A stretch of DNA of 64,000 nucleotides from positions 1-64,000 of IMG/VR virus record IMGVR_UViG_3300027679_000366; one strand, written 5' to 3'. A program made the translations under genes and the position numbers. The notes under the pieces are model-generated. The model had not been told where the DNA came from and did not search any database. It saw only the letters and a list, made by a program, of their open reading frames with translations. Below are positions 5,984-55,507 of this stretch, one piece after another; position 1 is the first letter of the stretch; every line of letters begins with the position of its first letter. The DNA comes from a virus (taxonomy: Duplodnaviria; Caudoviricetes).

Positions 5984-7006
5984 ATGAACATTAGAGAACT
6001 TTCTCAACCAGTTACAAGCAAAAGACTTAACGAAAATATGGCAAAGCAGTTGGGATATAGATTAAACTTGGAAAAGTTTAGCGATGCCCAGTTGGAAGAT
6101 GCCCGTAACAAAATGCGCACAGAAATGAGCCAATTTGAAGTTAGTGAAAGCTTCGATAGTGTTAATGTAAGCCCACAGTATCAAAAAGTACGTATGCTAC
6201 ATGATGTTATCAATCAAGAGATTTTAGAGCGTGAAGCTTCTATGGAAGAAGGCGCAGATAATTTGCCAGGCAATCGAGAACGTCTTGATGTTAACAAAAA
6301 CGGCAAACTTGAAAAATCAGACTTTGCGGCATTACGCAAAAACAAAACTAAGAAAAAAGCAGAGGAAAGTATGGACCACAACATTTATTTAGGTAAGTTA
6401 GCTGTTAAAGCTCAGGAACATTCAGTTCCAAACAGTTGGATTGCCGATGCCATCCGACGTATTAATTTAGGCGAAAGCGATCAAGAAGAATTGGCCAGCG
6501 AATTACAACTGCGTTACGACCTAAGCGAAACAGTTGCCAATCGCATTGTATATCTAAACGAAGGCGAAGAAGAAAAAGCCAAAATCATTATGTCCACAAA
6601 GGACATGGTTGATCGTATTACAGGCTGGCTTGACGATGTGTCAGCTATGAAAGCCGAACAACTACTACAACTATTAGACTCTATAAGAGAAGAATTGGGG
6701 TCAGATGTCGCTGAACAATATACACAGGCAGTTCGTCCAGCATTAGAAGAAATTTATGCAGGCTTAGAAAAGGCACGTGGCGCATTGAGTTCAGGATTAG
6801 GAATTGTGTCAGGCCAAGGCGGCGGTGAAATGATGGGAGCTCCAACAGGTGCTCCAACAATGCCAGGCGAAGAAGGCATGAGTATGCCAGGTGCAGAAGA
6901 AATGACAGGTGCAGAAGATTTAGCAAGCCCAGCAGGCCGCGAAATGCGGGAGTCACAGTATAGCCGCAAGTTAGGCATCATGTTGGCACAATCAAAAAAA
7001 AAGTAA
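5984..7006 (+). CDS. Acidic helical protein, possible prohead core/scaffold
   Basis: Glu-rich, TATAAATA upstream, G/M/P-rich linker; ends in slippery TCA AAA AAA AAG TAA. Confidence 0.6.
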   Translation: MNIRELSQPVTSKRLNENMAKQLGYRLNLEKFSDAQLEDARNKMRTEMSQFEVSESFDSVNVSPQYQKVRMLHDVINQEILEREASMEEGADNLPGNRERLDVNKNGKLEKSDFAALRKNKTKKKAEESMDHNIYLGKLAVKAQEHSVPNSWIADAIRRINLGESDQEELASELQLRYDLSETVANRIVYLNEGEEEKAKIIMSTKDMVDRITGWLDDVSAMKAEQLLQLLDSIREELGSDVAEQYTQAVRPALEEIYAGLEKARGALSSGLGIVSGQGGGEMMGAPTGAPTMPGEEGMSMPGAEEMTGAEDLASPAGREMRESQYSRKLGIMLAQSKKK

Positions 7007-18087: not shown

Positions 18088-18216
18088 ATTGTACCTCAAA
18101 AGGTTTGGAGTACAACAAAGCAGTAAGGCTTTTAACGCACAAGGAGATGTATCAGAGCCATATTTTATAATGACGGAACCAGCGATTCCGTGATCCAGCG
18201 TAAAGGAGAAAATCAT
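18088..18216 (+). ncRNA. Candidate structured leader RNA
   Basis: ~130 nt of non-coding sequence almost identical in arm B, with three predicted hairpins. Confidence 0.55.
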
Positions 18217-18747
18217 ATGATACGCATCATCAAAACAGCAGTCTTTATTTTAGTAATGATACTAGTAGGATTAGCAGGGGTTAAGGCAGTGAATTACAAA
18301 CTGGACACCCTAAAAACAGCTCGTGAACAAGCGAGTCCGGTTACAGCACAAATAAGACAGAAACAACTAGACTGTCTAGCTCGTAACATATACCATGAAG
18401 CAGGCTACGAACCTTTTGAAGGCAAGGTTGCAGTGGCTCAGGTAACAATCAATCGTGCAGAAAGTGGACAATTTCCCAGTGACATCTGCCAAGTAGTATA
18501 TCAAAAGAACATAGTGTACGAACGGGTGCTTTGCCAGTTCAGTTGGTACTGTGAAAGTGCCACTGTTAAAAAACCCATGAATGGCCCTGTGTATACAGAA
18601 AGTATGGAAGTGGCCAAAAAAGTATTGTTAGAAGGATTTAGATTACCCTCCATCAAAAATGCTCTTTACTTTCATGGCGACTACATCAATCCCAAATGGG
18701 GTAAGCAACCCGTGGCCAAAATTGGCCGACACATTTTTTATAATTAG
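18217..18747 (+). CDS. SleB-like cell wall hydrolase (Hydrolase_2) with N-terminal TM anchor
   Basis: CLARNIYHEA, GKVAVAQVTINR, QFSWY, IGRHIFY. Confidence 0.92.
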   Translation: MIRIIKTAVFILVMILVGLAGVKAVNYKLDTLKTAREQASPVTAQIRQKQLDCLARNIYHEAGYEPFEGKVAVAQVTINRAESGQFPSDICQVVYQKNIVYERVLCQFSWYCESATVKKPMNGPVYTESMEVAKKVLLEGFRLPSIKNALYFHGDYINPKWGKQPVAKIGRHIFYN

Positions 18748-19778: not shown

Positions 19779-21023
19779 ATGATTTTAGCGTACTTACTAC
19801 TATTAACTGGTTTAACGATATCTGCGGTCGCAATCTACTATAGTGTAGTAGGTCTGACCGCAATATTTTCTGCCGCGGCTATCCCAATTATCATCATGGG
19901 TTCAGCTTTAGAAGTAGGCAAACTGGTGTGCGCCAGTTGGCTCAAAGCCAACTGGACTCGTGCTCCTGCTTACATGAAGTACTATATGATTTCAGCAGTG
20001 GCTATACTGATGCTGATTACCAGCATGGGTATCTTTGGATTCCTTTCCAAAGCACACAACGATCAAAATTTAGTGAGTGGCGATGTCCAAAGTAAGATTG
20101 CTATCTATGATGAAAAGATCAAAACAGCACGAGACAATATAGATGCAAACCGCAAAGCTCTTAAACAGATGGATGAAGCTGTGGATCAAGTCATGGGCCG
20201 AAGCAGTGATGAAAAAGGTGCCGAAAAAGCTGTTCAAATTAGACGCAGTCAGCAAAAAGAACGTGCAAGGCTCCAGTCTGAGATCACCGCTGAACAAAAA
20301 ATTGTTGCCTCCGTTAGCCAAGAGCGTTCTCCAATCGCGGCAGAAGTACGCAAGGTTGAGGCTGAAGTAGGACCAATCAAATACATTGCCAAATTCATCT
20401 ACGGTGATAAAGGTGCAGATGAAAACATGTTGGAAAAAGCTGTCACATGGATCATCATAATGATTGTTATTGTGTTCGATCCTTTGGCAGTTATCATGTT
20501 GCTGGCCGCACAAATGACATTTGGTTGGCGCCGCGAAGGCACAGAACCTGTTAAGCCTGTAAGCATTAGCGACTTTGTTCCTCAACCCACAGAACACATT
20601 CCCAACAAAGAAACAAAAGAATCTGAAGTTGAGTATACTATTTTGGATGACCATCACGAACCGGATTATCCTGAACCAATCACAACAGCAGATCAAACTA
20701 CAAATATTAATCAAACTGAGGCACCAAGCGAAACGCCTGTTACAGCACTAGGAGGTGATATAACTGGACAGGAATCGTCAAATCAAGAATTTCCACAGCC
20801 AATAGAGCAATGGAACAACATGATTGCAGAGGCAGAAGCAGAGGCAAACAAAGAAATAGTTGAGAAGGAAGCTCGTAAATATCAAATACTTCCTGAACTT
20901 GTTGAACATACCAACGAGCGAAATAAGCCTGATCTTACTGAAGTTATAGAACCCATCGACTCAAAAAAAAAGACTTACATGATGAAGGCTCCGGACGGCT
21001 CAATACAGATCAAAAACCGTTAA
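19779..21023 (+). CDS. Multi-TM coiled-coil membrane protein (DUF4407-like)
   Basis: Three N-terminal TM helices, coiled coil, VFDPLAV TM, acidic tail; A9G slippery run at 20963-20972. Confidence 0.75.
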   Translation: MILAYLLLLTGLTISAVAIYYSVVGLTAIFSAAAIPIIIMGSALEVGKLVCASWLKANWTRAPAYMKYYMISAVAILMLITSMGIFGFLSKAHNDQNLVSGDVQSKIAIYDEKIKTARDNIDANRKALKQMDEAVDQVMGRSSDEKGAEKAVQIRRSQQKERARLQSEITAEQKIVASVSQERSPIAAEVRKVEAEVGPIKYIAKFIYGDKGADENMLEKAVTWIIIMIVIVFDPLAVIMLLAAQMTFGWRREGTEPVKPVSISDFVPQPTEHIPNKETKESEVEYTILDDHHEPDYPEPITTADQTTNINQTEAPSETPVTALGGDITGQESSNQEFPQPIEQWNNMIAEAEAEANKEIVEKEARKYQILPELVEHTNERNKPDLTEVIEPIDSKKKTYMMKAPDGSIQIKNR

Positions 21024-21292
21024 TAAGTAACGACTATGTACAAAACGCAGAACAAGGCGTTGATACATTATGGTCACGTATTACTGAACGTTCAACTTTA
21101 AAATTAAAAGATCAACTATATGTTGAATATGGCCTAGACCAATTTGCAGGCATAATTGTTGACAAAGAGGCAGAGCCAGAACTTTATGATTTTGTGGAAG
21201 ATTGTAAAACCAACGGCGCCCGTTTTTACGGATACCCAGAAGATAAAATGGAATATTTTGCAAGAAGGATTTATGAGCTTAGGAAAGATTAA
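20972..21292 (+). CDS. -1 frameshift alternative C-terminus of 19779-21023
   Basis: Open frame DLHDEG...YVQNAEQGVDTLWSRI...[13 protein letters not shown] with no suitable start; conserved in arm B. Confidence 0.8.
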   Translation, partial: DLHDEGSGRLNTDQKPLISNDYVQNAEQGVDTLWSRITERSTLKLKDQLYVEYGLDQFAGIIVDKEAEPELYDFVEDCKTNGARFYGYPEDKMEYFARRIYELRKD

Positions 21293-21677
21293 TTTGATAA
21301 CACCACCAGATAAGCTGTTCAATATGAACTTAGGCTATCTTTTGGTAAAACCAAGTGTATATGTTAAACAACAATTTCAAACTATATTGAGTCACAATAT
21401 GGAAGAAATTAATGTATTCGTTTACGACGAGAATGAACACGATATCGATTGGTTACTTAGTGTGGCCAATCAATGTGATGTTACTATAATAGATGTCGAC
21501 AACTGTGACCCAATTACTCAAAAATTTATCACTTATTTGTTAGCCCAGCCCAACACACACTATATAACTAACGACGAGATTACTCCTTATGGATTAATCA
21601 ACAAAAATAGAATTTACAATTTGGACTGGATTGTACAGCAAATGGACGATAACGAAGAGGATGAAACTGATGAGTAG
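21273..21677 (+). CDS. Conserved phage hypothetical protein
   Basis: [10 protein letters not shown]...IDVDNCD...NRIYNLD; homolog 38166-38582. Confidence 0.85.
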
Positions 21678-21906
21678 AGAAAAGCGGTATGATGGTAATC
21701 GTGTTACTGTCAAAGATAATGAAAACATAACACAGGCACTGCGTAGATTCAAACGTAAGATTGAAGACAGTGGACTTTTGGACACACTCCGTAAAAAAGA
21801 GTTTTATGAAAAGCCAACTACTGAACGCAAACGTAAAAAGAGTGCGGCCGTAAATCGATATAAAAAGAAACTTGAAAAAGAGCAATTACCTAAAAAAATG
21901 TATTGA
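21670..21906 (+). CDS. rpsU: Ribosomal protein bS21
   Basis: [17 protein letters not shown]...EFYEKPT.ERKRKK. Confidence 0.93.
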
Positions 21907-22843: not shown

Positions 22844-22898
22844 TGTAGTGCGCCGTAAGGGCCTACATATTCTTGCTTAATTAAAGGAGAACAATATG
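22844..22898 (+). promoter_or_regulatory. ROSE-like RNA thermometer of dnaK
   Basis: 5' hairpin, then TTCTTGCTT pairing with AAGGAGAA and leaving a bulged G. Confidence 0.7.
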
Positions 22899-24806
22899 AG
22901 CAAAATCATCGGTATCGATTTAGGTACAACAAATAGCTGTGTAGCAATCCTAGAAAACGGAGTTGCCAAAGTAATTGAAAATAGCGAAGGTGCTAGAACA
23001 ACACCATCAATCGTGGCTTACACCAAAGGCGAGATTCTCGTTGGTGCTACAGCTAAACGACAAGCAGTAACAAACCCAAAAAATACAATCTACGCCAGCA
23101 AGCGCCTTATTGGCCGCAAGTTTAGCGAGAAAGAAGTACAGAAAGACATTGGTCTAATGCCTTACGGTATTGTCCAAGCAGACAACGGTGACGCATGGAT
23201 TGAAGCCAATGGCGAGAAATTGGCTCCACAACAAGTGTCAGCTGAAGTACTTCGCAAAATGAAAAAGACTGCTGAAGACTATTTAGGTTATGAAGTAACG
23301 CAGGCAGTTATTACTGTACCAGCTTACTTTAACGACAGTCAGCGTCAAGCAACCAAAGATGCAGGACGTATTGCCGGCTTGGAAGTACTGCGTATTATCA
23401 ACGAACCAACTGCGGCCGCACTGGCATACGGTGTAGACAAACAAGACAAGAAGGATCGCAAGATTGCAGTATACGACTTGGGTGGTGGTACATTTGATAT
23501 CAGTATTATTGAAATTGCCAACATTGACGGCGACAAACAAATTGAAGTGTTATCAACAAACGGCGACACATTCCTTGGTGGTGAAGACTTCGATCAAGCC
23601 ATTATGGATCATTTGGTTGCAGTTTTTAAGAAAGAGTCTGGCATTGACTTGAAGAAAGATATGCTTGCCCTACAACGTTTGAAAGACTCAGCTGAAAAGG
23701 CCAAGATTGAATTGTCCAGTGCGGCCAGTACAGATGTTAACTTGCCATACATCACAGCAGACGCAAGTGGCCCTAAGCATTTGAACGTTAAATTAACTCG
23801 TGCTAAGTTTGAACAAATGGTCGAAGACTTGATTACTCGTTCAATTGAACCGTGTAAGACAGCCATGTCAGATGCTAATGTCACTGCCGCAGACATCGAC
23901 GAAGTTATCCTTGTTGGTGGACAAACACGTATGCCCAAAGTACAAGAAGCAGTTGAGAAACTGTTTGGCAAGGCTCCACGCAAAGACGTTAACCCAGACG
24001 AAGCAGTGGCCGCTGGTGCCGCCATCCAGGGTGCTGTGTTGGCCGGCGACAAGACAGATGTGCTGTTGCTAGACGTTACACCATTGAGTTTGGGTATTGA
24101 AACAATGGGTGGAGTGTTTACCAAAGTTATTCAAAAGAACACAACTATCCCAACCAAAGCTAGCCAAACGTTCAGTACTGCTGAAGACAATCAACCAGCT
24201 GTAACTATCAAAGTTGGTCAAGGCGAACGTGAACTATTCAAGTTTAATAAGATACTGGGCGAATTCAATCTCGACGGCATTGCCCCAGCACCACGTGGCA
24301 TGCCACAAGTTGAAGTTACCTTTGACATTGATGCCAATGGTATCATGCATATCAGTGCTAAAGATAAAGGCACTGGTAAGGAAAATAAGATTACAATCAA
24401 ATCCGATAGCGGATTGACGGAAGCTGAAATCCAACGCATGGTACAAGAAGCTGAACAAAACGCAGAGTCTGATAAGAAAGCCAAAGAGCTCATTGAAGCA
24501 CGTAATCAAGCTGATGGTGCCACACACAGCTTCAAGAAAGACTTTGAAGAAGTTAAAGAACAGTTGACTGAAGAAGAAAAGACAGCCGTTGAAACTGCAC
24601 TTAAAGGTGTAGACGATGCAGTAGTTGGAGAAGATCCAGAAGCTATTCAAAAATCAGTCCAAGCAGTTTTCGAAGCAGGCAAACCTGTATTTGAAAAGAA
24701 GCAGGCCGCTGAGGCCGCAAAGAGTGCCGCACCAGCTGACCAGCCTGCCGAAGGGCAAACAGTGGATGCGAGCTTCACAGAAGTTGACACACAGACAGCA
24801 AAGTAA
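22896..24806 (+). CDS. dnaK: Hsp70 chaperone DnaK
   Basis: [32 protein letters not shown]; full length. Confidence 0.98.
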
Positions 24807-26879: not shown

Positions 26880-28556
26880 ATGCGTGTAATTGACATTTTA
26901 ACTGAATCCGTTTTAACAGAAGCTGGCTTAACAGCTAGAGACTTTTATGAGCGCGGTAGGCTGGATAATTTTATTAAGAAATTAGTTGCCAAAGAACCTT
27001 TTTTTACTGTGGACGGCGAACAGATTGAAATTCCTGCTACCGGTTCCGAAATAAGCTGGCTCAAAACTCAACTCAAAACAAACTTTGATTCTAAAGATCC
27101 TCTAGCAAGAGCAGTACAGACTCTTAATATTTTTCCAAAGATCGGAGGAATCAGACTAAGTTCCTTGGCCAAAACTAAAGAATTTGGGGGAACATTCAGT
27201 GTGAACTCCAGTGGCAAGATGGATACTAGCAAAGCCAATATAGGGCCAACTGTTGAAGCTTTGAAAGCATTTGCTATATTTGCAAGATTGGTAATACGAA
27301 ATAAGGCAACACTCACTGCTCAAGACGTTATGAAAGTTGCACAGATGGCTCAAAAGAATTCTAGTATAGTTTACCTAACAAATGAAAAAACGGGAAAACC
27401 CTCTAAAAATCCTACCACTCAGGTGACAGTTGTAAGAAAAGTACCTGACAAGAATGGAACTGTAAAAGATGAATTTACATTAAATGTATCTTTAAGCACA
27501 CCTTCTTTCGTTCGTGCAATAAATGTAACAGAAAAAGACAAGGCAGCTTGGGGACATTTAAACGGTGTTGTGAAATATATCAATTCGGAAGGCGACTTGG
27601 CAAAATATTCTAGATACTTTGCTAATAACAACAAAAAAGATCCTGTTAAAATTGCAGTGATTGGTATTGAGTTAGGCAAAGTTGATATCTCATCATCATA
27701 TACTGATCCGGTCAGTGGAGAAGAACGTCCTCTAGAAAACTTAACAATGAGTATCAAGAGCGAAGATGCTCCTTGGTTCCATCAAACATCCGGTGGAAAA
27801 TTAACCGGTATATATCAAATGTATCAAGCAATAGGTTTGACAGATGCTGAAGTAGACGAAGACATGGTCACTGCTGGCTACCAAGAAACAGGAAAGAAGA
27901 ATTCCCGTGCGCAATTCCAACAGACTGTGAAGGCTGTTGAAGCCATATATGATCTTGCTTTTGACCGACTGGGTTCAGCAATGGCCAAGTTAAACGATAA
28001 AGGCGAAGCTGACTATATTCATAACTTTTTAAACACGTTAAAACACAATATTGCAGGCGATGACAAATTAGTCTATGTAAAATTTAATGCACGTGGAGCA
28101 TACTCAAAATTAAAACCCAACATGTTATGGCATCTATCTGAAGTCATCGAACTGGGCGTTAATCAAGGCACAGGCCAACGCCGCGCAATCTACTGGATTG
28201 ACCAAAAAACAGGTAAAACACTGATGGAAGTGAGGATGTTAATAAATGCTCCAAATCACAGAATTACCAATCAATTTAATTTAGGCAAAGACTTCTTTTC
28301 GTTAATTAAAGAATCTGAAAAGATTTACAATGTTAACAGTACCAAAGCGGCACCTGCTACTACCCCTACAACGGACAAGCAAGTGACCCAAGTAGAACCA
28401 ACTGAACCTATCGCTAAAAAGGCAGTTCCAGCAAATATTAAAAAATCAGCGGCAACTGCTGTGCCAACCGCTAACATTGATACCAATCCCAATCAATCAT
28501 TAAACCGTGCTGTTCCTAGCACAAATCCAAACGACAATATTCCGTTCGCAACATAA
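26880..28556 (+). CDS. Large late protein, possible PD-(D/E)XK-fold nuclease
   Basis: TATAAATA promoter; MRVIDILTES; E-helix / KVDI / MSIK pattern mirrored in 31133-32980. Confidence 0.5.
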   Translation: MRVIDILTESVLTEAGLTARDFYERGRLDNFIKKLVAKEPFFTVDGEQIEIPATGSEISWLKTQLKTNFDSKDPLARAVQTLNIFPKIGGIRLSSLAKTKEFGGTFSVNSSGKMDTSKANIGPTVEALKAFAIFARLVIRNKATLTAQDVMKVAQMAQKNSSIVYLTNEKTGKPSKNPTTQVTVVRKVPDKNGTVKDEFTLNVSLSTPSFVRAINVTEKDKAAWGHLNGVVKYINSEGDLAKYSRYFANNNKKDPVKIAVIGIELGKVDISSSYTDPVSGEERPLENLTMSIKSEDAPWFHQTSGGKLTGIYQMYQAIGLTDAEVDEDMVTAGYQETGKKNSRAQFQQTVKAVEAIYDLAFDRLGSAMAKLNDKGEADYIHNFLNTLKHNIAGDDKLVYVKFNARGAYSKLKPNMLWHLSEVIELGVNQGTGQRRAIYWIDQKTGKTLMEVRMLINAPNHRITNQFNLGKDFFSLIKESEKIYNVNSTKAAPATTPTTDKQVTQVEPTEPIAKKAVPANIKKSAATAVPTANIDTNPNQSLNRAVPSTNPNDNIPFAT

Positions 28557-28619
28557 TCCACGTACTTAGAATACCTTATTAGTAGTAAATACTAATAACG
28601 ATATACCGGGAGCGAAACC

Positions 28620-29234
28620 GTGGATCCAATCACGATAGGTCTGGCATTTGCCGCCGCCCAATCAGCAGTTAGTCATATAAAGCAAGCCGTAGCTCTGGGT
28701 AAGGACATCAACAGTCTAGTAGGGCAATTCAGCAAATTCTTTGAAAGTTCAGATTCTATACATCGTGAACGAACAAAGTTAAAAGCCAAAGCTAACCTAC
28801 TGGGCAAAACTGATGCTGAGTTGGGGCACGAAGCCCTACAAATTGCCATGCACAGTGATGCCCTACGTCAAGCAGAGCGCGATCTCAAAGACATGATTCT
28901 TTGGCAATTGGGTAAACCGCAGATTTGGGAACAAATGATTGCCGAGCGCACCAGACTATTCAAAGCCCGTGCAGAAGCCCAACGTGCAGAAGAAGAACGT
29001 GAACTAGCACACAAGAAAAAAATGGCTGATACGTTTATTTTTGGCATGTATTTCCTAGCAGGGTCAGTGATTGTATTTGCATTTGCCATGGGCGGTGTTG
29101 GCATTTACGGCCAGATGGAAGAAAAACGAATTTATGAAGAAAAGGTTGTCAAGAGAAATCTAGTTATTCGTCAACAACAAAAAGAACGCGAAGCTCGTGA
29201 AAAGAAAGAACGCGAAGATTATGCTAAAAATTAA
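28620..29234 (+). CDS. MDP-family coiled-coil membrane protein
   Basis: GTG start after GGGAG; amphipathic N-helix, coiled coil, one TM, basic tail. Confidence 0.75.
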   Translation: MDPITIGLAFAAAQSAVSHIKQAVALGKDINSLVGQFSKFFESSDSIHRERTKLKAKANLLGKTDAELGHEALQIAMHSDALRQAERDLKDMILWQLGKPQIWEQMIAERTRLFKARAEAQRAEEERELAHKKKMADTFIFGMYFLAGSVIVFAFAMGGVGIYGQMEEKRIYEEKVVKRNLVIRQQQKEREAREKKEREDYAKN

Positions 29235-29245
29235 CAAAGGAACGT

Positions 29246-29359
29246 ATGTACTTCAACATTATTATCACATTCAATGATCTGCTGTTCTTATTGTCAATGA
29301 CTCCATTAGTGGCTATATTTTGTGTCATGTTTAAAGATTGGCTCAAAGATAGAAAATGA
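29246..29359 (+). CDS. 37-aa membrane peptide
   Basis: MYFNIIITFNDLLFLLSMTPLVAIFCVMFKDWLKDRK; AAGGA RBS; ATGA-coupled to next ORF. Confidence 0.6.
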   Translation: MYFNIIITFNDLLFLLSMTPLVAIFCVMFKDWLKDRK

Positions 29360-29517
29360 TCATGTACGAATGGATATTGATGCTAGCCCTTGCACAAGAA
29401 CCAGTTAAGAAATGGCCAGAGTGGGAGTGTGTGCGTTGGACATGGACCGGTGACGTTTACAATCGCACAGTGATATGTTTAGAATGGCGCAAGAGAGAAA
29501 ATAGATGGAAACCCTAA
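29356..29517 (+). CDS. 53-aa putative exported peptide with Cys pair
   Basis: CVRWTWTGDVYNRTVICLEW; paralog of next ORF. Confidence 0.7.
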   Translation: MIMYEWILMLALAQEPVKKWPEWECVRWTWTGDVYNRTVICLEWRKRENRWKP

Positions 29518-29750
29518 ACAGAATAATTGTGGTCCTGGCATTATCGACTCTGTGTGTTTCTACGATAGTGTCAAGTTCACCCATGTACGGCGGTGATCGT
29601 CCCAATGTAGCTAGAGAATTACCCAGTCGAGAACGTGAAGTAACGCTCAATCAGGGTGTTGCCCAATGTGTTAGAACTGCTTGGATTGGTGATGTCAGCA
29701 ATAGAACATTGATTTGTGTTGAATATCGCTATCGGAAAGAGGTCAAGTAA
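29505..29750 (+). CDS. Putative exported peptide with Cys pair
   Basis: Signal-peptide-like N-terminus; CVRTAWIGDVSNRTLICVEY. Confidence 0.7.
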   Translation: METLNRIIVVLALSTLCVSTIVSSSPMYGGDRPNVARELPSREREVTLNQGVAQCVRTAWIGDVSNRTLICVEYRYRKEVK

Positions 29751-30532
29751 TGGATCCCTTAACACTCTTTGCACTGGCCAATGCCGCAGTGTCCGCAGTC
29801 AAGGCTGGCTGTAAACTTTATAAAGATATCAAAGGTGCGGCGGGTGATGTCAAGGATGTACTCAAAGATCTTGATGCACAGTTCCAAAAACTTCACCCGG
29901 CTGAAAAACCAGCCACAGTAGAGCAACGTAATCAATACATTCGTACAAAAAACGAAGTTGTCGAGTTAAACAAAAAGGCTAACTCGGGCGAGCATACCGG
30001 TGTTTACACAGAGATTGGCAATCATCTTGGCGCATATTACGATAACTTAAACAAGTGTATGGCAATCTTTGCTGAAGAAGAACGTCGCAGTAAAACACAA
30101 GTTTATACTGGAGATGACAGCCTAGGTAAACGTGCCTTACAACGTGTGTTGATGCGCAAGCAATTGGAACAAATGGGCACTGAACTGCGTGAGATAATGG
30201 TGTATCAAAGCCCTAAAGAACTGGGTGCGCTTTATACAGAAGTAGAAGAGATGATGAGAGAAATGGGTAAGGAACAAAAAGTTCTCATCATCAAGCAAAT
30301 GAAAATTCAGGAGGTACAGGATCGTAGACGTGCGGCCCGTATGAAACAGCTGAGAGAAGAGTTGATCATCGGTGTAGCAATCATGATCATCATCATTATC
30401 ATGGGCGGAGTGTTCATGTGGGTAGCACATGATCGCCAGCAAAAATACCCACAATACGGCAACGAGTTATTTCCCAAGTCTGAAAAACAGCGACAATCTG
30501 AAGCAGAGCCTAAAGTATATATAGGACGCTAG
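29750..30532 (+). CDS. MDP-family coiled-coil membrane protein
   Basis: MDPLTLFALANAAVSAVK; same architecture as 28620-29234. Confidence 0.75.
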   Translation: MDPLTLFALANAAVSAVKAGCKLYKDIKGAAGDVKDVLKDLDAQFQKLHPAEKPATVEQRNQYIRTKNEVVELNKKANSGEHTGVYTEIGNHLGAYYDNLNKCMAIFAEEERRSKTQVYTGDDSLGKRALQRVLMRKQLEQMGTELREIMVYQSPKELGALYTEVEEMMREMGKEQKVLIIKQMKIQEVQDRRRAARMKQLREELIIGVAIMIIIIIMGGVFMWVAHDRQQKYPQYGNELFPKSEKQRQSEAEPKVYIGR

Positions 30533-30539
30533 GTGTTAA

Positions 30540-30620
30540 TTACTTCAATTGCCATTCCATCCATATCAAGAACGCAGTGACTAATAATGTTAATATCAGA
30601 ACAATTTGTGGCAATCTCAT
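30540..30620 (-). CDS. 26-aa hydrophobic peptide
   Basis: MRLPQIVLILTLLVTAFLIWMEWQLK; ATGA overlap with 30617-31048. Confidence 0.5.
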   Translation of the reverse strand: MRLPQIVLILTLLVTAFLIWMEWQLK

Positions 30621-31048
30621 ATTTTGTATAGTTTAAAAAAGTAAGTAACTAATGTGCCAGCTACAAAACACCAGCACAACACATCAATTTGTTTTTGTCG
30701 GTCGCGATCCATTGCAGATAATTCAGCTTTATATTCTTTTTCTATAACAGCTTTTTCAGCTTCTACTTTGATCCACGCATCCTTGCCGTATTTTTGAATA
30801 GTTTCAGCCTTTAGTCTAGCTACATCTCGCTCGTACTTCATCTTAGTCTCAAATTTTTCAAGAGCTCTATACTCAAGAGTTGATTTTCGATGTTGCTCTG
30901 CTAGTTTAGATTTTATACGGGATTCATGCTCGCGCTGAACGGTAGCTTCCATATCAGCCTGTTGGCTTGATACAACTGCTCCTAATTCCTTGCCTGCACT
31001 TTGCGCAGATTTAAGGGTAGTTGTGGCGGACTTAATTCCGTCTAACAT
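30617..31048 (-). CDS. Coiled-coil protein with C-terminal TM
   Basis: Start MLDGIK after GGGAGCGAAA; KYGKDAW..VE.E motif; C-terminal hydrophobic helix. Confidence 0.7.
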   Translation of the reverse strand: MLDGIKSATTTLKSAQSAGKELGAVVSSQQADMEATVQREHESRIKSKLAEQHRKSTLEYRALEKFETKMKYERDVARLKAETIQKYGKDAWIKVEAEKAVIEKEYKAELSAMDRDRQKQIDVLCWCFVAGTLVTYFFKLYKI

Positions 31049-31132
31049 TTTTCGCTCCCGAGGTTCCTCACCAGTATTTACTATGAGGTGGGGAATCATT
31101 AAATGACTGCTTTTTCTTGTTCTAAAACAAAC

Positions 31133-32980
31133 TTAGTGTGAGTATTTTGCTAAATGTAACATGCGTTGTAATTCACTTACATGTTCATCTTTGTGGGGTT
31201 GCCATTTGTGTTGTTCTGCAACCTTTTCTTCATCGTTAGCTAGTTGCGATTGCTGTGAAACGTCTGCAGGTTGTTGTGATGTAGGAACAGTTGGCATTGG
31301 TGCTTGTGTAGTAGTTGCTTTAACTGCGGCATTTGGCTCTGTTTTTGTTTTTGCAGGGCTAGTTGCCGTTGGTTGGTCAAATACTGGTTTAGCCCGTGTA
31401 TCAAACGTTGATGCAGTATCTGCACCTTCTTGTTGAGTTATGTCAGTAAGTTTCTTCAACAAACCGCCCATTTCAACTACGTTGCGTGTAGTTTTGTCTT
31501 GGTTATATGTACGTAGTTGTACAAACATACTATCACCATTATTAATGCGTTTTCCTAAATCAGTTACAGCAAAACCGTAAATCTTTAAGATACAAGTTTT
31601 TTCAGAGATTGTTAATTCGTGTGTTAGATTGTAATTTTTTAGTGCTTCATGAAATTCCGGGCCAAACGATAATTCTTTATATGCTTCTTTAGCTGAAGGG
31701 CTAATAACTACTACACGAACATCTTGTCCTAGAGTTGCATGATGTACCACTCCGGTTGTCACTTCTTTAACAAAATCATACTCATTAGCACTACCGGACA
31801 ATAATTTCTTTAGTTCTTTATCCATGTACTTATAGGCCGCAGGAATAGCAATTCTAGAATTATAATCGCGTGCCGCTTTAGCGATAGGTTCTCTTTCTTT
31901 AGAATATAAGTATCCTTCTGGAGCAGGATCACCTTTCTTCCAATCCGGAAACAATAGATTACCAGTTTCGTCTGTTGGAGGATTCTTTGGTGAAAACTGC
32001 AACGGCACCATCTTAAACTTTTTCTTTATTTCTTCGGGTAAGTGTATGCCTAATACACTGTTTAAGAATGTATCAATTTTATCAAACTCATAACCAGCAT
32101 ATCCGCCAATATGCTTAACTGTGCTTGTTTTAATACTTAATAGTTTTTCTTTAGTTCCATTAAGAGCAATCCATAAGTCTGCTTTTGTACTATGTTGGGC
32201 TTCGTGTGTTGCGCCATCAGCTGTAACTGAGATTACATCTTTAGTATCGGCATTTTTAATTTTTTCTAATGCAGATTTAACAGCACTTGATTGATTAACG
32301 TATGTTGCGCAATCACTAAACATTTTGTATACTTGTTTTGAATTTTCATATTTTAAAAATTCTTGAGGATTACGTGCAGACATTATAAATGCTTTAAAGT
32401 CTTCACCTGCCAGTGCAATATTAAGTTCTATAGCTTTACCAAATGCTGTGCTTTTAATACTTGTACCTTCAATGCGTTGTGCTGTACCAAATACATCCTT
32501 GGCTTCTAATTCAGCACCCTCTTTTTCAAATTTTGTTAGTACAGCAGATGCCATAATAGCTTCTGCAACGTTGCCGTCATTCCACCATTTACTGTAAGTT
32601 TTCTCACCTGGTTTTTCGCCTACTTTTTGCTTGATAGCGCCAGTCTTTTCAATTTGGTTAACTCGATATTCGCCACCGCCTTTAGCTGGTAATAAAACTG
32701 TTTTGATTTGTTCTAGCTGTTCGCCATCAGGTGACTCTAATCTGTCGCGGCCAGTTGGATTCCAAATAGCTTCTAATCTGTCTGCGGCCTCTGGGGAAAA
32801 TTTAATAGTCTTTACTAACTTAGGACTTGTTTTAGTCTTATCAAGAGTAACTTGTATCTCGTCGCCTGCTCGTATTGAGTTGATTAAGTTTCGATAATAG
32901 TTCGAATTACCCGGTCTAGCGATAGATACGGGCTGGAGTGTTTCTTCAGAAACCAGGTATTTAAAATCATTAAATCTCAT
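31133..32980 (-). CDS. Large late protein, possible PD-(D/E)XK-fold nuclease
   Basis: Start MRFNDF after TAAATA; GNVAEA / KADLWI / LSIK; syntenic with 26880-28556. Confidence 0.5.
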   Translation of the reverse strand: MRFNDFKYLVSEETLQPVSIARPGNSNYYRNLINSIRAGDEIQVTLDKTKTSPKLVKTIKFSPEAADRLEAIWNPTGRDRLESPDGEQLEQIKTVLLPAKGGGEYRVNQIEKTGAIKQKVGEKPGEKTYSKWWNDGNVAEAIMASAVLTKFEKEGAELEAKDVFGTAQRIEGTSIKSTAFGKAIELNIALAGEDFKAFIMSARNPQEFLKYENSKQVYKMFSDCATYVNQSSAVKSALEKIKNADTKDVISVTADGATHEAQHSTKADLWIALNGTKEKLLSIKTSTVKHIGGYAGYEFDKIDTFLNSVLGIHLPEEIKKKFKMVPLQFSPKNPPTDETGNLLFPDWKKGDPAPEGYLYSKEREPIAKAARDYNSRIAIPAAYKYMDKELKKLLSGSANEYDFVKEVTTGVVHHATLGQDVRVVVISPSAKEAYKELSFGPEFHEALKNYNLTHELTISEKTCILKIYGFAVTDLGKRINNGDSMFVQLRTYNQDKTTRNVVEMGGLLKKLTDITQQEGADTASTFDTRAKPVFDQPTATSPAKTKTEPNAAVKATTTQAPMPTVPTSQQPADVSQQSQLANDEEKVAEQHKWQPHKDEHVSELQRMLHLAKYSH

Positions 32981-32990
32981 AGTAGAGTAT

Positions 32991-33671
32991 TTATCGGATT
33001 TCTGGGAACAAACATTCCTGAATGAAGTGCTGTACATCGTCCTCACTTAGCCCCAAACTAACCATCACACGCGGTGTATGGGGGTTGCACTTCTGATTTT
33101 GTGCATAATAGTTCTGTGCTAGTGTTGTATCTTCAGCTGTGTTGTTTGTTTCCGCTACTGTGCTTAGATAGTGTGCTACTGTAGTTTTAGCTAGATTTGT
33201 AATTTGTTCTAGTTCTGCTTCATCTTGTACGTTACCCGCGGCCACCATACTACCACTGAATATGTTAGTAGCCCATTCAGGCAAAGCACGTTCTCTGCGC
33301 CATTCTAATTTGGCTACTTCATCATGGAACCACGCCATCATTGGATGGTCAGCATCGCCTGCTTTTGAGTAATCGTGAAAACAACCGGTAATCTTGTTCT
33401 TACCAGCTATAACATCAAATCCATAGATAGGTGCAGGGTTATGAGTATGTGGAAAGATGCAACAATGCATCATCCATAATCCTTTAGAGTCTCTTGCGTC
33501 TACAACATCAACGTGAGCGCGGCGGTAACTATCAGAAGTCCATACGCGATTAATCCACCCTGGTTGATTAAAGCGATCCATACCCGGTTCAAATACTTCT
33601 GTGCCAGTGTTATCAAAACTGTTCTCCAATAGATGTTGTATTTCTATTAACGTATCCCATACCTTGCTCAT
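32991..33671 (-). CDS. pcyX: Ferredoxin-dependent bilin reductase, PcyX/PcyA group
   Basis: Close homolog of 26189-26869. Confidence 0.85.
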   Translation of the reverse strand: MSKVWDTLIEIQHLLENSFDNTGTEVFEPGMDRFNQPGWINRVWTSDSYRRAHVDVVDARDSKGLWMMHCCIFPHTHNPAPIYGFDVIAGKNKITGCFHDYSKAGDADHPMMAWFHDEVAKLEWRRERALPEWATNIFSGSMVAAGNVQDEAELEQITNLAKTTVAHYLSTVAETNNTAEDTTLAQNYYAQNQKCNPHTPRVMVSLGLSEDDVQHFIQECLFPEIR

Positions 33672-38182: not shown

Positions 38183-38582
38183 CTGAGTCCTCATCATCTT
38201 CTGGGTCAGTAAGTTGTTCAACAATACTGTCCAGGTTATAAATCCTGTTTTTTGAAATTAAATTATATGGTGTAATTTCATCACTAGTTATATAGTATGC
38301 ATTTGGTTGTGCTATTAGAAATGTGATAAACTGTCTTGTGATTGGATCACAGTTATCAACATCTACTATTACCACATCTACCTGCTGTGAAACACTTAAC
38401 ATCCAACTAATATCAGTTTCTTCATGCTCGTACATGAATATGTTTAAATCATCTATGCTTTTACTCAATATTGCTTGAAACTGTTGTTTTACATATATCG
38501 ATGGCTTAACTAACAGATAACTTAAATTCAAATTGAATAGTTTATCCGGCGGTGTTATTACTGTTATTTTTCCTAAGTTCAT
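38166..38582 (-). CDS. Conserved phage hypothetical protein
   Basis: Homolog of 21273-21677; start MNLGK. Confidence 0.85.
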
Positions 38583-38883
38583 ATATCCTGCTTGCAAAGT
38601 ATTCGATGTCTGATGGCCCATAGTCGTCAAACTTATGTGTACCATCTTGTATAGCTTTAATAAATCGATCTATCTCTAATTCCTGTGATGCATCTATACC
38701 TTCAAATCGATCTTTATCAAACTCTATGTAAAGACGATCCATTGGTTTGAATATATCAACTGAACTTCGATCTTGTATTCTTGCCCAAAGTGTATCAGCA
38801 CCTTGCTCGGCATTTTGTACGTATCCTATTACTCCCGTGTCTTCACTTGCAACTGTCCGTCCGGGTTCTTGATCATGTAAGTC
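38542..38883 (-). CDS. -1 frameshift alternative C-terminus of 38829-40034
   Basis: DLHDQE...YVQNAEQGADTLWARI...[12 protein letters not shown] is open from the A AAA AAG site. Confidence 0.8.
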   Translation of the reverse strand, partial: DLHDQEPGRTVASEDTGVIGYVQNAEQGADTLWARIQDRSSVDIFKPMDRLYIEFDKDRFEGIDASQELEIDRFIKAIQDGTHKFDDYGPSDIEYFASRIYELRKNNSNNTAG

Positions 38884-40034
38884 TTTTTTTTAGACTCGTC
38901 TTCCTGGCCCCATAGTTCAGCTAGTGAAATTGTTTTTGCCGGTGTATCGTTAGCAATAGGTAGTTGGGCATCGGCTTCTACTTTTAAAAGGTGTTCACCC
39001 CTATTAAGTTCAGCTTCAATTTTTTCAGCCTCAACTGCTTTCTCAGCTTCTTCTATCATTGTATTCCATTTTTCTAGCTCTGACTCTGTAGGTACTTCTT
39101 CTACAGGTTCCTCCGGCGCTGTTATATCACCTCCTAGTGCAGTCGACGGTGTTTCGCTTGGAACTTCTTCTGTGTGTGTTTGTTTAATTTCTGTGTTTGG
39201 TTCTTGAATAATAGGAGGAACAATGCCTACTATAGTATTATCTTTATCTACTAGTAATGCACCATCTTTAGATTCTTCTTTACGCCAGCCAAATGTCATT
39301 TGTGCGGCCAGCAACATGATAACTGCTAACGGATCAAATACAACAACAATCATTATGATGATCCATGTTACTGCTTTTTCCAACATGTTTTCATCTGCGC
39401 CATGATCACCGTAGATGAATTTGGCAATGTATTTGATTGGTCCTACTTCAGCTTCTACTTTTCGAACTTCTGCGGCAATTGGAGAACGTTCTTCATTTAA
39501 GGCAACAATTGACTTTTGAGATTTAGCAATGTCAGCCTGTATTTGAGTTCTTTCTTTAGACTGTCGCTGACGCATAGCATTGGCATTAACAGCACCTTGA
39601 TCTGTTTTACTACGAGCAATCGTTTCGTCAATCGTAGCATCCATTTGCTTGAGTGCTTTACGATTGGCTTCAATGTTTTCTCGTTCTGTTTTAATTTTTT
39701 CGTCGTATATGGCAATCTTACTTTGGACATCACCACTGACTAGATTTTGGTCGTTGTGTGCTTTGGAAAGGAATCCAAAAATACCCATACTAGTAATAAG
39801 CATGAGAATAGCCACTGCCAAAATCATGTAATACTTCATGTAAGCAGGAGCACGTTCCCAATTGGCTTTAAGCCAGCTAGCACATACTAGTTTGCCAACC
39901 TCTAGGGCTGATCCCATTACAATGATAGGAATGACTGCCGCGGAAAAGATAGCAGTCAAACCTACTACAGAGTAGTAAATTGCGACTACAGAAATGGTGA
40001 GACCAGTAAGTAGTAATAACCAGGCTAAAATCAT
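38829..40034 (-). CDS. Multi-TM coiled-coil membrane protein (DUF4407-like)
   Basis: Homolog of 19779-21023. Confidence 0.75.
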   Translation of the reverse strand: MILAWLLLLTGLTISVVAIYYSVVGLTAIFSAAVIPIIVMGSALEVGKLVCASWLKANWERAPAYMKYYMILAVAILMLITSMGIFGFLSKAHNDQNLVSGDVQSKIAIYDEKIKTERENIEANRKALKQMDATIDETIARSKTDQGAVNANAMRQRQSKERTQIQADIAKSQKSIVALNEERSPIAAEVRKVEAEVGPIKYIAKFIYGDHGADENMLEKAVTWIIIMIVVVFDPLAVIMLLAAQMTFGWRKEESKDGALLVDKDNTIVGIVPPIIQEPNTEIKQTHTEEVPSETPSTALGGDITAPEEPVEEVPTESELEKWNTMIEEAEKAVEAEKIEAELNRGEHLLKVEADAQLPIANDTPAKTISLAELWGQEDESKKKTYMIKNPDGQLQVKTRE

Positions 40035-54497: not shown

Positions 54498-55507
54498 TTT
54501 TTTTTTGAGTTGAGTAACATGCCTAAACGACGGCTGTAGTCTACCGACTCACGCTTTTCTCTGCCTGCTTCTGCCGACATTGGTGTTTCTTCGTCCATGC
54601 CTGGCTCACCGCCTGGTGCTGGTGGCATTGGTAGTTCTGGTAGTCCGCCTGCTGGTTCTTCGCCTGGCAACCCGCCCATTCCGCCTGCTGGTGTGCCCAT
54701 TGTAGGAGCCTCACCACCTGATACAATTGCTAATGCGCTTGACAAGCCTTGACGACTTGTTTCTAATGATGTATAAATTGCCTCTAGAGCCGGCTTAACT
54801 GAATCTTGGTAACGTTGTGCAACGTCACTGCCTTGGGTTTCTCTTATAGAGTCTAATAGTTCTAGTAGCTGTTCTGCTTTCATAGCCGCAACATCTTCTA
54901 GCCAGCCTGTAATACGGTCTACCATATCTTTAGTAGCCATAATAGTTTCAGCTTTAGTTTCTTCGCCTTCTAGTAGGATCCAACTTGCTTGTGCTTCATT
55001 TAGGTCATAACGTAATGACAGTTCTGCCTTAAGTTCTTCTGTATCTGATTCGCCTAATCTCATTCTGCTAAGTGCTGAGTCAATCCAGCTATCTGGCACT
55101 GCCGACTTTCGAGCACGGTGACGGATAAATGCTGTGATGTTGTTGCTTTCGTTTGTTTTTGCTTTAGTTTTCATAGGCTTTTCTTCTTTATCTTCCTCTT
55201 CGTCGCATTCACATGGGCTACAATCACACTCTGAACAAGTGCTTTCTGCTAATTGATCACGCTCTAGGATAGCTTGGTTGATGCAATCTAGCATCAAACG
55301 TGTTTTTTGATATTGTGCGCTTTCAAGAACAGATTCATAGCTTTCTGATAGTTCCATTTGACTTAAACGTGTGCGCAACTTGTTACGTGCGTCTTCTAAT
55401 TGTACATCGCTAAACTGCTCAAAGTTAATCTTATAGCCAAACTTCTGTGCTAGGCTTTCGTTAAGCTGTTTGCTTGTAATGGGTTTTGACAATTCTCTAA
55501 TTTGCAT
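54494..55507 (-). CDS. Acidic helical protein, possible prohead core/scaffold
   Basis: Homolog of 5984-7006; ends TCA AAA AAA AAG TAA. Confidence 0.6.
   Translation of the reverse strand: MQIRELSKPITSKQLNESLAQKFGYKINFEQFSDVQLEDARNKLRTRLSQMELSESYESVLESAQYQKTRLMLDCINQAILERDQLAESTCSECDCSPCECDEEEDKEEKPMKTKAKTNESNNITAFIRHRARKSAVPDSWIDSALSRMRLGESDTEELKAELSLRYDLNEAQASWILLEGEETKAETIMATKDMVDRITGWLEDVAAMKAEQLLELLDSIRETQGSDVAQRYQDSVKPALEAIYTSLETSRQGLSSALAIVSGGEAPTMGTPAGGMGGLPGEEPAGGLPELPMPPAPGGEPGMDEETPMSAEAGREKRESVDYSRRLGMLLNSKKK

Follow-up and report, generated by a model that had tools for sequence, protein, structure and literature searches.

Most known cases of programmed recoding in phages concern the genes of tail chaperones and capsids, where it is annotated as ribosomal. 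Here we analyse a conserved change of reading frame close to the 3' end of a membrane-protein gene in a stretch of 64,000 nt, positions 1-64,000 of the Caudoviricetes record IMGVR_UViG_3300027679_000366 (IMG/VR), called the window in the following. The gene is present twice, in two arms (A and B) of the window. Both copies carry a run of A's, nine in arm A (A9) and eight in arm B (A8), in front of two alternative C-termini: a short tail in the 0 frame and a long extension in the -1 frame. We are highly confident that the frame is changed at this run. Regarding the mechanism, we favour programmed transcriptional slippage with RNA polymerase adding A's on the run, to which we assign a probability of about 0.55.

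Several described systems resemble this arrangement. In Thermus thermophilus dnaX mRNAs containing one or more extra A's, in decreasing proportion, are reported (PMC5009743). According to the same source the run consists of nine A's (mRNA sense), and the heterogeneous mRNAs lead to two products by standard translation. The phage locus shares this layout including a nearby stop in the third frame. Unlike in Thermus, where the 0 frame is the long one and slippage truncates a replicase subunit, slippage here would extend a phage membrane protein, and the RNA heterogeneity is seen at contig level only. In tssM1 of Citrobacter rodentium and Yersinia an A11 run gives 10-15 A's in RNA whereas a synthetic RNA control stays at 11 (PMC4256274). 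As described there, tssM1 likewise encodes an inner-membrane protein in two length variants, with poly-A just 5' of the stop and no Shine-Dalgarno (SD)-like or structural stimulator. In contrast to the phage gene, tssM1 is a bacterial secretion gene with A11, and slippage is described as rescuing an interrupted gene; here A9 or A8 runs are found in a large phage clade with both C-termini conserved. Slippage in Shigella spa13 (mxiE, spa33 and mxiA are listed beside it) adds a 112-aa (amino acid) extension overlapping the next start (PMC5009743); the extension found here has 106-113 aa and likewise overlaps the next ATG. The spa13 gene belongs to a type III secretion operon, whereas the gene described here is a phage gene for which an effect on downstream expression is putative. 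The sequence-only reading of this locus had known no precedent for frameshifting in a phage inner-membrane coiled-coil protein; going by these two sources, tssM1 and spa13 do provide one. A phage example of a short and a C-terminally extended product is lambda G/GT, with a set ratio and no strong stimulator as far as PMC5009743 describes it. It differs in slippery site and function, being a tail assembly chaperone, while the membrane protein is encoded two genes past an endolysin and not in a tail module.

The phage run also contains the in-phase heptamer A_AAA_AAG, identical to that of E. coli dnaX. The latter is accompanied by an upstream SD-like element and a 3' stem-loop. Neither was detected here and, unlike the truncating shift of dnaX, the one described here extends the protein. 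No report of this recoding was found in a literature search (supplements were outside the search). The gene family, its clade-wide conservation, the use of one 12-nt signal at two genes and public RNA data that bear on the mechanism are new.

Both arms meet, as claimed before, at TCN AAA AAA AAG ACT TAC ATG. In arm A the word TCA AAA AAA AAG ACT TAC ATG occupies 20961-20981, in arm B it reads TCT AAA AAA AAG ACT TAC ATG within the open reading frame (ORF) 40034..38829. The 0-frame protein of arm A ends in KKKTYMMKAPDGSIQIKNR*, and the A run lies about 55 nt 5' of the 0-frame stop in both arms. Read in the -1 frame from 20963, arm A yields KKKDLHDEGSGRLNTDQKPLISNDYVQNAEQGVDTLWSRI... and contains the motif YVQNAEQGVDTLWSRI; it comprises 109 codons including KKK, thus 106 after it. 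In arm B a TAA stands immediately 5' of the run in the -1 frame, followed by 115 codons (113 after KK). A recount on both arms hence agrees with the proposed lengths of 106 and 113 aa and with the shared motifs. The extension of arm A has no usable start, its earliest ATG/GTG/TTG being a GTG at 21194. Moreover the -1 frame fills the gap up to the next gene, and its overlap with the ATG of that gene amounts to 17 nt (arm A) or 38 nt (arm B). Each arm has one copy of the 18-nt word AAAAAAAAGACTTACATG, and these are its only two occurrences in the window, whereas 0.03 would be expected from shuffling.

For comparison 80 of 575 related IMG/VR stretches were taken together with both arms (82 sequences). 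Five run off their contig, leaving 77 complete relatives, and collapsing identical 550-nt windows among the run-bearing ones gave 53 distinct sequences. The sequence-only reading would have been contradicted by relatives that lack the heptamer and initiate the downstream frame separately. Instead 68 of the 77 complete relatives have kept both an open -1 frame and, 55-64 nt ahead of the 0-frame stop, an A-rich heptamer in phase, and 50 of the 53 distinct sequences have no ATG, GTG or TTG in that frame upstream of the motif (19/53 have none in the entire -1 ORF). The run is TC-A9-G in 48 sequences, CT-A8-G in four and TC-A11-C in one. Throughout the 53 the -1 reading follows the pattern KK[DE]L[HY]DQG, a variable spacer and GYVQN.EQ....W.RI, with Y, Q, N, E, Q and W of the motif invariant in 42 sequences. 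Beyond the motif 45 go on for roughly 70 aa, seven stop (their -1 ORF ending about 42 aa from the run) and one leaves the contig. 3' of the 0-frame stop the mean ratio of nonsynonymous to synonymous differences (pN/pS) in the -1 frame is 0.49 at pS 0.66, and the motif block has 0.39. Purifying selection acts on the -1 ORF, which encodes a conserved product without a start of its own. In all ten cases checked the ORF stops somewhere from 38 nt inside the next gene to 2 nt ahead of the ATG of that gene; an ATGA stop/start overlap is present in five of seven short-extension lineages checked.

A second, pattern-based sample gave a consistent picture. It comprises 80 of at least 110 matching stretches, the contigs being partly common with the first set. 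Of these, 75 are family members with TCA-A8G in 68, CCA in two, CTA in two and TCT in three; the other five matches are unrelated. Wherever enough upstream sequence is present, a long upstream ORF leads into the short-tail frame. The arm A stretch itself was found in 20 public lake or freshwater sequencing runs from 19 studies, six of the runs being metatranscriptomes.

One could regard the downstream ORF as a separate small gene that uses a non-canonical start or is reached by termination-reinitiation after the 0-frame stop. Gene callers indeed report pieces of it: in 16 of 17 protein clusters the called product is a fragment of 61-93 aa from an internal start, while the remaining cluster (126 aa) covers the whole extension query. 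Moreover, at a second A9 site of the window (see below) the two most distant relatives have a downstream gene with its own ATG. The called fragments, though, leave out the motif and account for 53-76% of the extension; the motif is invariant and in the 50 sequences mentioned above has no start codon before it. A separate gene would also leave the frozen A run unexplained. Furthermore, natural relatives place the motif on the membrane protein. In L052/L054 (TC-A10), L016 (CC-A10) and L049 (TCT-A9) the run has exactly one A more than in their kin, so that the ORF of the membrane protein and the extension share one frame (...SKKKELHDQ...GYVQNAEQ...RIYELRK). In the other frame these relatives still have an intact short-tail ORF. 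L060, L071, L073 and L079 form a distant lineage without the run; here Y[QI]QNAEQ..W.[RK][IV] follows in frame, then a stop and directly the next gene. L061 has an unrelated C-terminus. Scanning metagenomes for at least ten A's in the signal context yielded 54 stretches, of which only L241 belongs to this family (TC-A10, one extra A, 411 upstream codons in the extension frame). From the in-frame relatives, the run-less relatives and the rarity of runs of at least ten A's we conclude that the extension belongs to the membrane protein; a separate gene appears highly improbable.

In the run-less lineage the in-frame sequence 5' of the motif resembles the 0-frame tail in L060, L071 and L073 (WMEKDTQGNQVKK versus YMTKDEQGQIQIK) and the -1 reading in L079 (KKKDNSMDGTGTGSTDSQD versus KKDIHDQGRTGTDTDQE). 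Both stretches are short and of low complexity and are given no weight. A shift at the 0-frame stop that would join both motifs as in the L060-type relatives was considered and rejected: no conserved slippery site is found there and the frozen A run is left unexplained.

The relatives with one extra A also bear on whether the run varies at the level of DNA, by phase variation or replication slippage, or is miscounted by homopolymer assembly errors, such that single genomes would hard-code either isoform. Such variants exist (L016, L049, L052/L054 and L241), and the extension is read in frame in two clusters of 271-863 aa from a collection of 5.8 billion proteins; one of the two, P0008 with 507 aa, belongs to the arm A type. 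These are the only two in that collection, however. Variants make up 4/77 of the first set and 0/75 of the second sample, whose pattern is unable to match the GAGC context of L052, and the whole metagenome scan returned a single family match. The DNA sequencing run described below contains no variant contig. A9 is moreover stable across sequences with near-saturated synonymous sites and in a stretch that recurs in 20 runs from 19 studies. The rarity of relatives with an additional A indicates that A9 is the stable genomic state and that hard-coded fusions are rare. Variation of the DNA is thus a very unlikely explanation.

The constraint on the run was evaluated codon by codon. The third positions of the Lys codons show entropies of 0, 0 and 0.14 bits compared to 0.8-1.9 bits at other third positions of the tail, and AAA AAA AAG is used in 52 of 53 sequences where 15% would be expected from the Lys codon use of this gene. 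The constraint reaches beyond the heptamer. The fourfold degenerate third base of the preceding Ser, Pro or Leu codon is A in 49/53 and T in 4/53, never G or C, at a background of 37% A. This A turns A8 into A9 and lies outside the heptamer. The second sample agrees, 72 of its 75 family loci having TCA, CCA or CTA as this codon. Hence the run reaches or exceeds the length at which bacterial RNA polymerase begins to slip (about 8-9 A or T; PMC5009743, PMC6260861) and is conserved beyond the need of the protein. Runs of nine A's or T's are described to slip efficiently in vivo (PMC5009743). At the same time the run contains a heptamer of the type X_XXY_YYZ in the phase of the 0 frame, A_AAA_AAG in 52/53 and A_AAA_AAA in 1/53.

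3' of the run only the 0-frame protein is under constraint. In the overlap of roughly 17 codons (evaluated over 15 codons, ungapped in 50 of 53 sequences) the 0 frame has a pN/pS of 0.33 at pS 0.68, in line with the conserved short tail postulated earlier, while the -1 frame has a pN/pS of 1.0. The overlap is therefore read in two frames but not constrained in both, and the term "dual-coded" is not appropriate for it: its -1 reading evolves neutrally. Likewise the synonymous-site constraint that the sequence-only reading had proposed to look for is not seen across relatives, since synonymous divergence in the overlap 3' of the run is not lowered.

No 3' stimulatory stem-loop or pseudoknot, as dnaX-type frameshifting would have it 5-9 nt downstream, was found. 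RNAalifold predicts 0 pairs for the 53 sequences, and five single-sequence folds with z-scores of -1.2 to +1.95 are no better than shuffles. A candidate helix of 6 bp lacks covariation, and its score is reached by 103 of 500 shuffles. Upstream, at -17 to -6, purine-rich acidic codons (GAAGA/GACGA) with variable third positions are located; a conserved AGGAGG-like or Shine-Dalgarno block is not apparent there on inspection.

The length of the run in RNA and DNA was compared at the arm A site using three RNA sequencing runs (X15, X16, X17) and one DNA sequencing run (X5), in the form of assembled contigs, not read counts. In X15 a contig of 1719 nt corresponds to 20711-21700 with 0 other differing letters and an additional AAAA in the run (A13). 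In X16 a contig of 1075 nt corresponds to 20654-21700 with one other differing letter and an additional AA (A11). X17 has no contig that bridges the run, one ending at 20956 and the next starting at 21001. Hence bridging contigs exist in two of three RNA runs, both with extra A's; at contig level, stutter in reverse transcription or polymerase chain reaction could contribute to these. In the DNA run X5 two contigs (20495-20982 and 20953-21700) cross the run with 0 gaps. Thus, as far as contigs tell, the DNA of one strain has A9 while its cDNA appears to have longer runs. An odd joint in X17 (20764 to 20963, side 20) was not used as evidence.

The same signal is found at a second gene. The 12-nt sequence TCAAAAAAAAAG followed by TAA at 6992-7006 (+), with its A run at 6994-7002, ends a 340-aa ORF (5984..7006) that matches PHROG 14154, a virion structural protein (E 2.3e-9). 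In the -1 frame about 110 aa follow up to 7332, which is conserved in arm B, where the copy of the run is located at 54498-54506 on the - strand. Among 13 IMG/VR relatives, 11 (48-88% identity) keep the signal and a -1 ORF of 109-123 aa. In the two most distant ones (25% identity) the run is missing, and the gene downstream is a separate one that starts at an overlapping TAATG. This site is probably the first frameshift noted in the sequence-only reading.

Based on these data we propose the following course of events. RNA polymerase transcribing the phage gene would realign on the A run and add non-templated A's, resulting in mixed mRNAs that are translated normally. mRNAs with nine A's (or three more) would give the short isoform with its conserved tail TYM.KD..G.IQ.K.R. 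mRNAs with one or four additional A's would give the long isoform, which would end on the start codon of the next gene and would consist of a neutral spacer of roughly 18 residues (DLHDQG...), the motif YVQN.EQ....W.RI and mostly a three-helix domain of roughly 65 aa. With two additional A's translation would stop after about five codons in the third frame. The third frame indeed stops within about 5-7 codons after the run (KKRLT*) in almost every relative (window positions 20973-20990), owing to ATG followed by a codon beginning with A. mRNAs with two extra A's, as in the X16 contig, would therefore yield a product lacking both tails.

Polymerase slippage is favoured because of the extra A's in the RNA contigs, the selected ninth A, the missing ribosomal stimulator and the maintenance of both frames in relatives with one additional A. 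The short-tail ORF would be kept intact in the latter since slippage would go both ways. The same 12-nt signal at the second gene, in both arms and 11 of 13 relatives, was counted in favour as well. RNA polymerase rather than the ribosome would then make most of the long form.

The serious rival, or co-contributor, is programmed -1 ribosomal frameshifting on A_AAA_AAG of the dnaX type without stimulation, in which the mRNA is faithful and the tRNA-Lys in P and A sites slip. We consider it less probable as the sole mechanism, and both kinds of slippage might contribute at this run. The in-phase heptamer in 68 of 77 complete relatives and the fixation of its synonymous positions speak in its favour. 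The A8 lineages (arm B, L017/L038, L043, L078) lose the ninth A and keep the heptamer, and in arm B the heptamer is precisely where the -1 frame becomes open. Moreover, some phage shifts need no stimulator and sites with both mechanisms may exist according to PMC5009743. On the other hand neither a conserved 3' structure or covariation nor a lowered downstream synonymous rate accompanies the site, and upstream inspection revealed a purine-rich stretch of acidic codons without conserved Shine-Dalgarno-like block. Ribosomal slippage further leaves three observations unexplained: the selection for the ninth A, the extra A's of the RNA contigs and the intact short-tail ORF of the relatives with one more A. 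Of the programmed frameshifting proposed earlier, the conserved frame change and the two alternative C-termini therefore stand, whereas the ribosomal mechanism is less well supported. The lack of 3' structure, the constraint extending to the ninth A and the extra A's in RNA argue for slippage of RNA polymerase, either alone or together with ribosomal slippage.

Several points weigh against transcriptional slippage. A8 is described as the detection limit of slippage by E. coli RNA polymerase (PMC6260861), while A_AAA_AAG is described as the most shift-prone -1 site in E. coli (PMC5009743). The run includes this heptamer perfectly in phase and all A8 lineages, arm B among them, have it intact. 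The G following the run is kept in 52/53, in agreement with the heptamer; this G also begins a D/E codon of the -1 frame, however. The slippage thresholds refer to bacterial RNA polymerase, in the case of A8 to that of E. coli, and the polymerase acting on this gene may behave differently. The RNA evidence consists of contigs, each representing one path and not reads or proportions. Only two of them bridge the run, from two sequencing runs of 2017 with different study codes, possibly of one campaign. They show +4 and +2 and not +1, which would be expected to be the commonest. Furthermore RNA libraries can contain DNA, and the compared stretch has no other long homopolymer that could serve as artefact control.

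Positions of all features of the two loci are summarised in Table 1.

Table 1. Features of the recoded membrane-protein gene in both arms of the window.
Feature	Position	Strand	Basis or remark
414-aa membrane protein of arm A, 0 frame (short isoform)	19779..21023	+	ORF, hydrophobicity
Arm A recoding signal TCA AAA AAA AAG	20961..20972	+	A9 run 20963-20971; in-phase heptamer A_AAA_AAG 20966-20972
Arm A 0-frame tail TYMMKAPDGSIQIKNR and stop	20973..21023	+	Same stretch is the overlap read in the -1 frame by the putative long isoform
Arm A -1 frame extension (C-terminus of the putative long isoform), stop 21290-21292	20963..21292	+	pN/pS 0.49 beyond the 0-frame stop
Conserved linear motif YVQNAEQGVDTLWSRI	21035..21082	+	Minimal part of the extension, in every lineage
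Predicted three-helix C-terminal domain, end RIYELRK	21095..21286	+	pLDDT about 85-90; short-extension lineages without the domain
Next gene, 134 aa, ATG inside the end of the -1 ORF	21273..21677	+	ORF list
Arm B membrane protein, 0 frame, 401 aa	38829..40034	-	ORF
Arm B signal TCT AAA AAA AAG (A8 run, intact heptamer)	38883..38894	-	A8 run 38884-38891; TAA directly upstream in the -1 frame
Arm B -1 frame extension including stop	38542..38889	-	Same motifs as arm A

The membrane protein has hydrophobic segments at about 1-24, 23-55, 71-89 and 225-243 and an acidic C-terminal linker. The loop 56-70 contains three K/R and no acidic residue, a charged coiled-coil loop of 135 aa lies between the third and fourth transmembrane (TM) segment, and WRRE follows TM4. 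By the positive-inside rule this would be a four-TM protein with both termini inside, the coiled coil being periplasmic and the linker as well as both tails cytoplasmic. The structure of the extension was predicted with AlphaFold2 (AF2) based on the alignment of 42 sequences. It consists of a confidently predicted three-helix unit (residues 45-108, predicted local distance difference test score (pLDDT) about 85-90) preceded by a region with pLDDT <50 up to residue 34 and a mean of 52 over residues 31-40. The low to moderate confidence over the motif is consistent with a linear binding motif. Foldseek of the AF2 model against the PDB gave no match at E <= 0.001, and no function is assigned to the extension for this reason.

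Extension, membrane protein and neighbours were searched against PHROGs, Pfam and NCBIfam with no family above threshold for the extension or the membrane protein. In Pfam the membrane protein obtained only a sub-threshold Tetraspanin hit (20.8 bits, cut-off 32.1). A neighbouring ESM Atlas cluster bears the automatic name "putative DUF4407", which serves as a lead only; the Pfam model of DUF4407, which we take to be PF14362, gave no match above its gathering score. With tblastn against named phages only the N-terminal roughly 250 aa were matched, in Pelagibacter phage Mosig, Flavobacterium immuto phages and several jumbo phages. The C-termini of these are unrelated and have no A run. The gene is located two genes downstream of a SleB-like endolysin (PHROG 938, E 2e-18), and the Mosig and immuto homologues adjoin wall hydrolases or a holin or sit a few genes from them. 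One may guess at a role of the membrane protein in lysis or envelope events.

The neighbourhood contains a ribosomal protein S21-like ORF (21631-21906) and an Hsp70/DnaK-like ORF (22896-24806), both named by eye, besides the SleB-like endolysin (18190-18747) and two exonucleases (PHROG 298 and 255). tRNA genes were not found in the 64-kb window. The window consists of two syntenic arms, about 80% identical and inverted around a non-repeated centre (about 26900-33000) with convergent genes; the parent IMG/VR record has 85.8 kb and is rated 23% complete. In the compared public runs arm A sequence continues as arm B-type sequence at loose contig ends (20530 and 20998). Hence both types co-occur and recombine, or they are mixed by the assemblers. 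The two-arm window may represent a chimeric assembly or a true inverted duplication.

Going further, though we regard it as rather doubtful, a clade of abundant freshwater T4-like phages might use TCAAAAAAAAAG as a portable cassette, a general stuttering signal at several genes, the membrane protein and the virion structural protein being at least two of them. In that case as many as three isoforms would arise per gene, their ratios being determined by slippage. As slippage depends on polymerase state and nucleotide supply, these ratios might shift in the course of infection and thereby serve as a timer, and termination of the long form on the next ATG would couple downstream expression.

Taken together, in a widespread freshwater phage clade with at least 575 related IMG/VR stretches an A9 run is frozen where a membrane-protein gene ends, and the signal is reused at a second gene; going by hints from public metatranscriptome contigs, the change would lie in the RNA rather than in the ribosome. 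The long isoform is overlooked by gene callers, which emit fragments instead, and for this reason protein databases lack YVQN.EQ..W.RI as a part of the protein to which it belongs. The site represents a natural place where two classical mechanisms of recoding overlap and can be separated by experiment, and it can be surveyed with paired metagenome and metatranscriptome reads.

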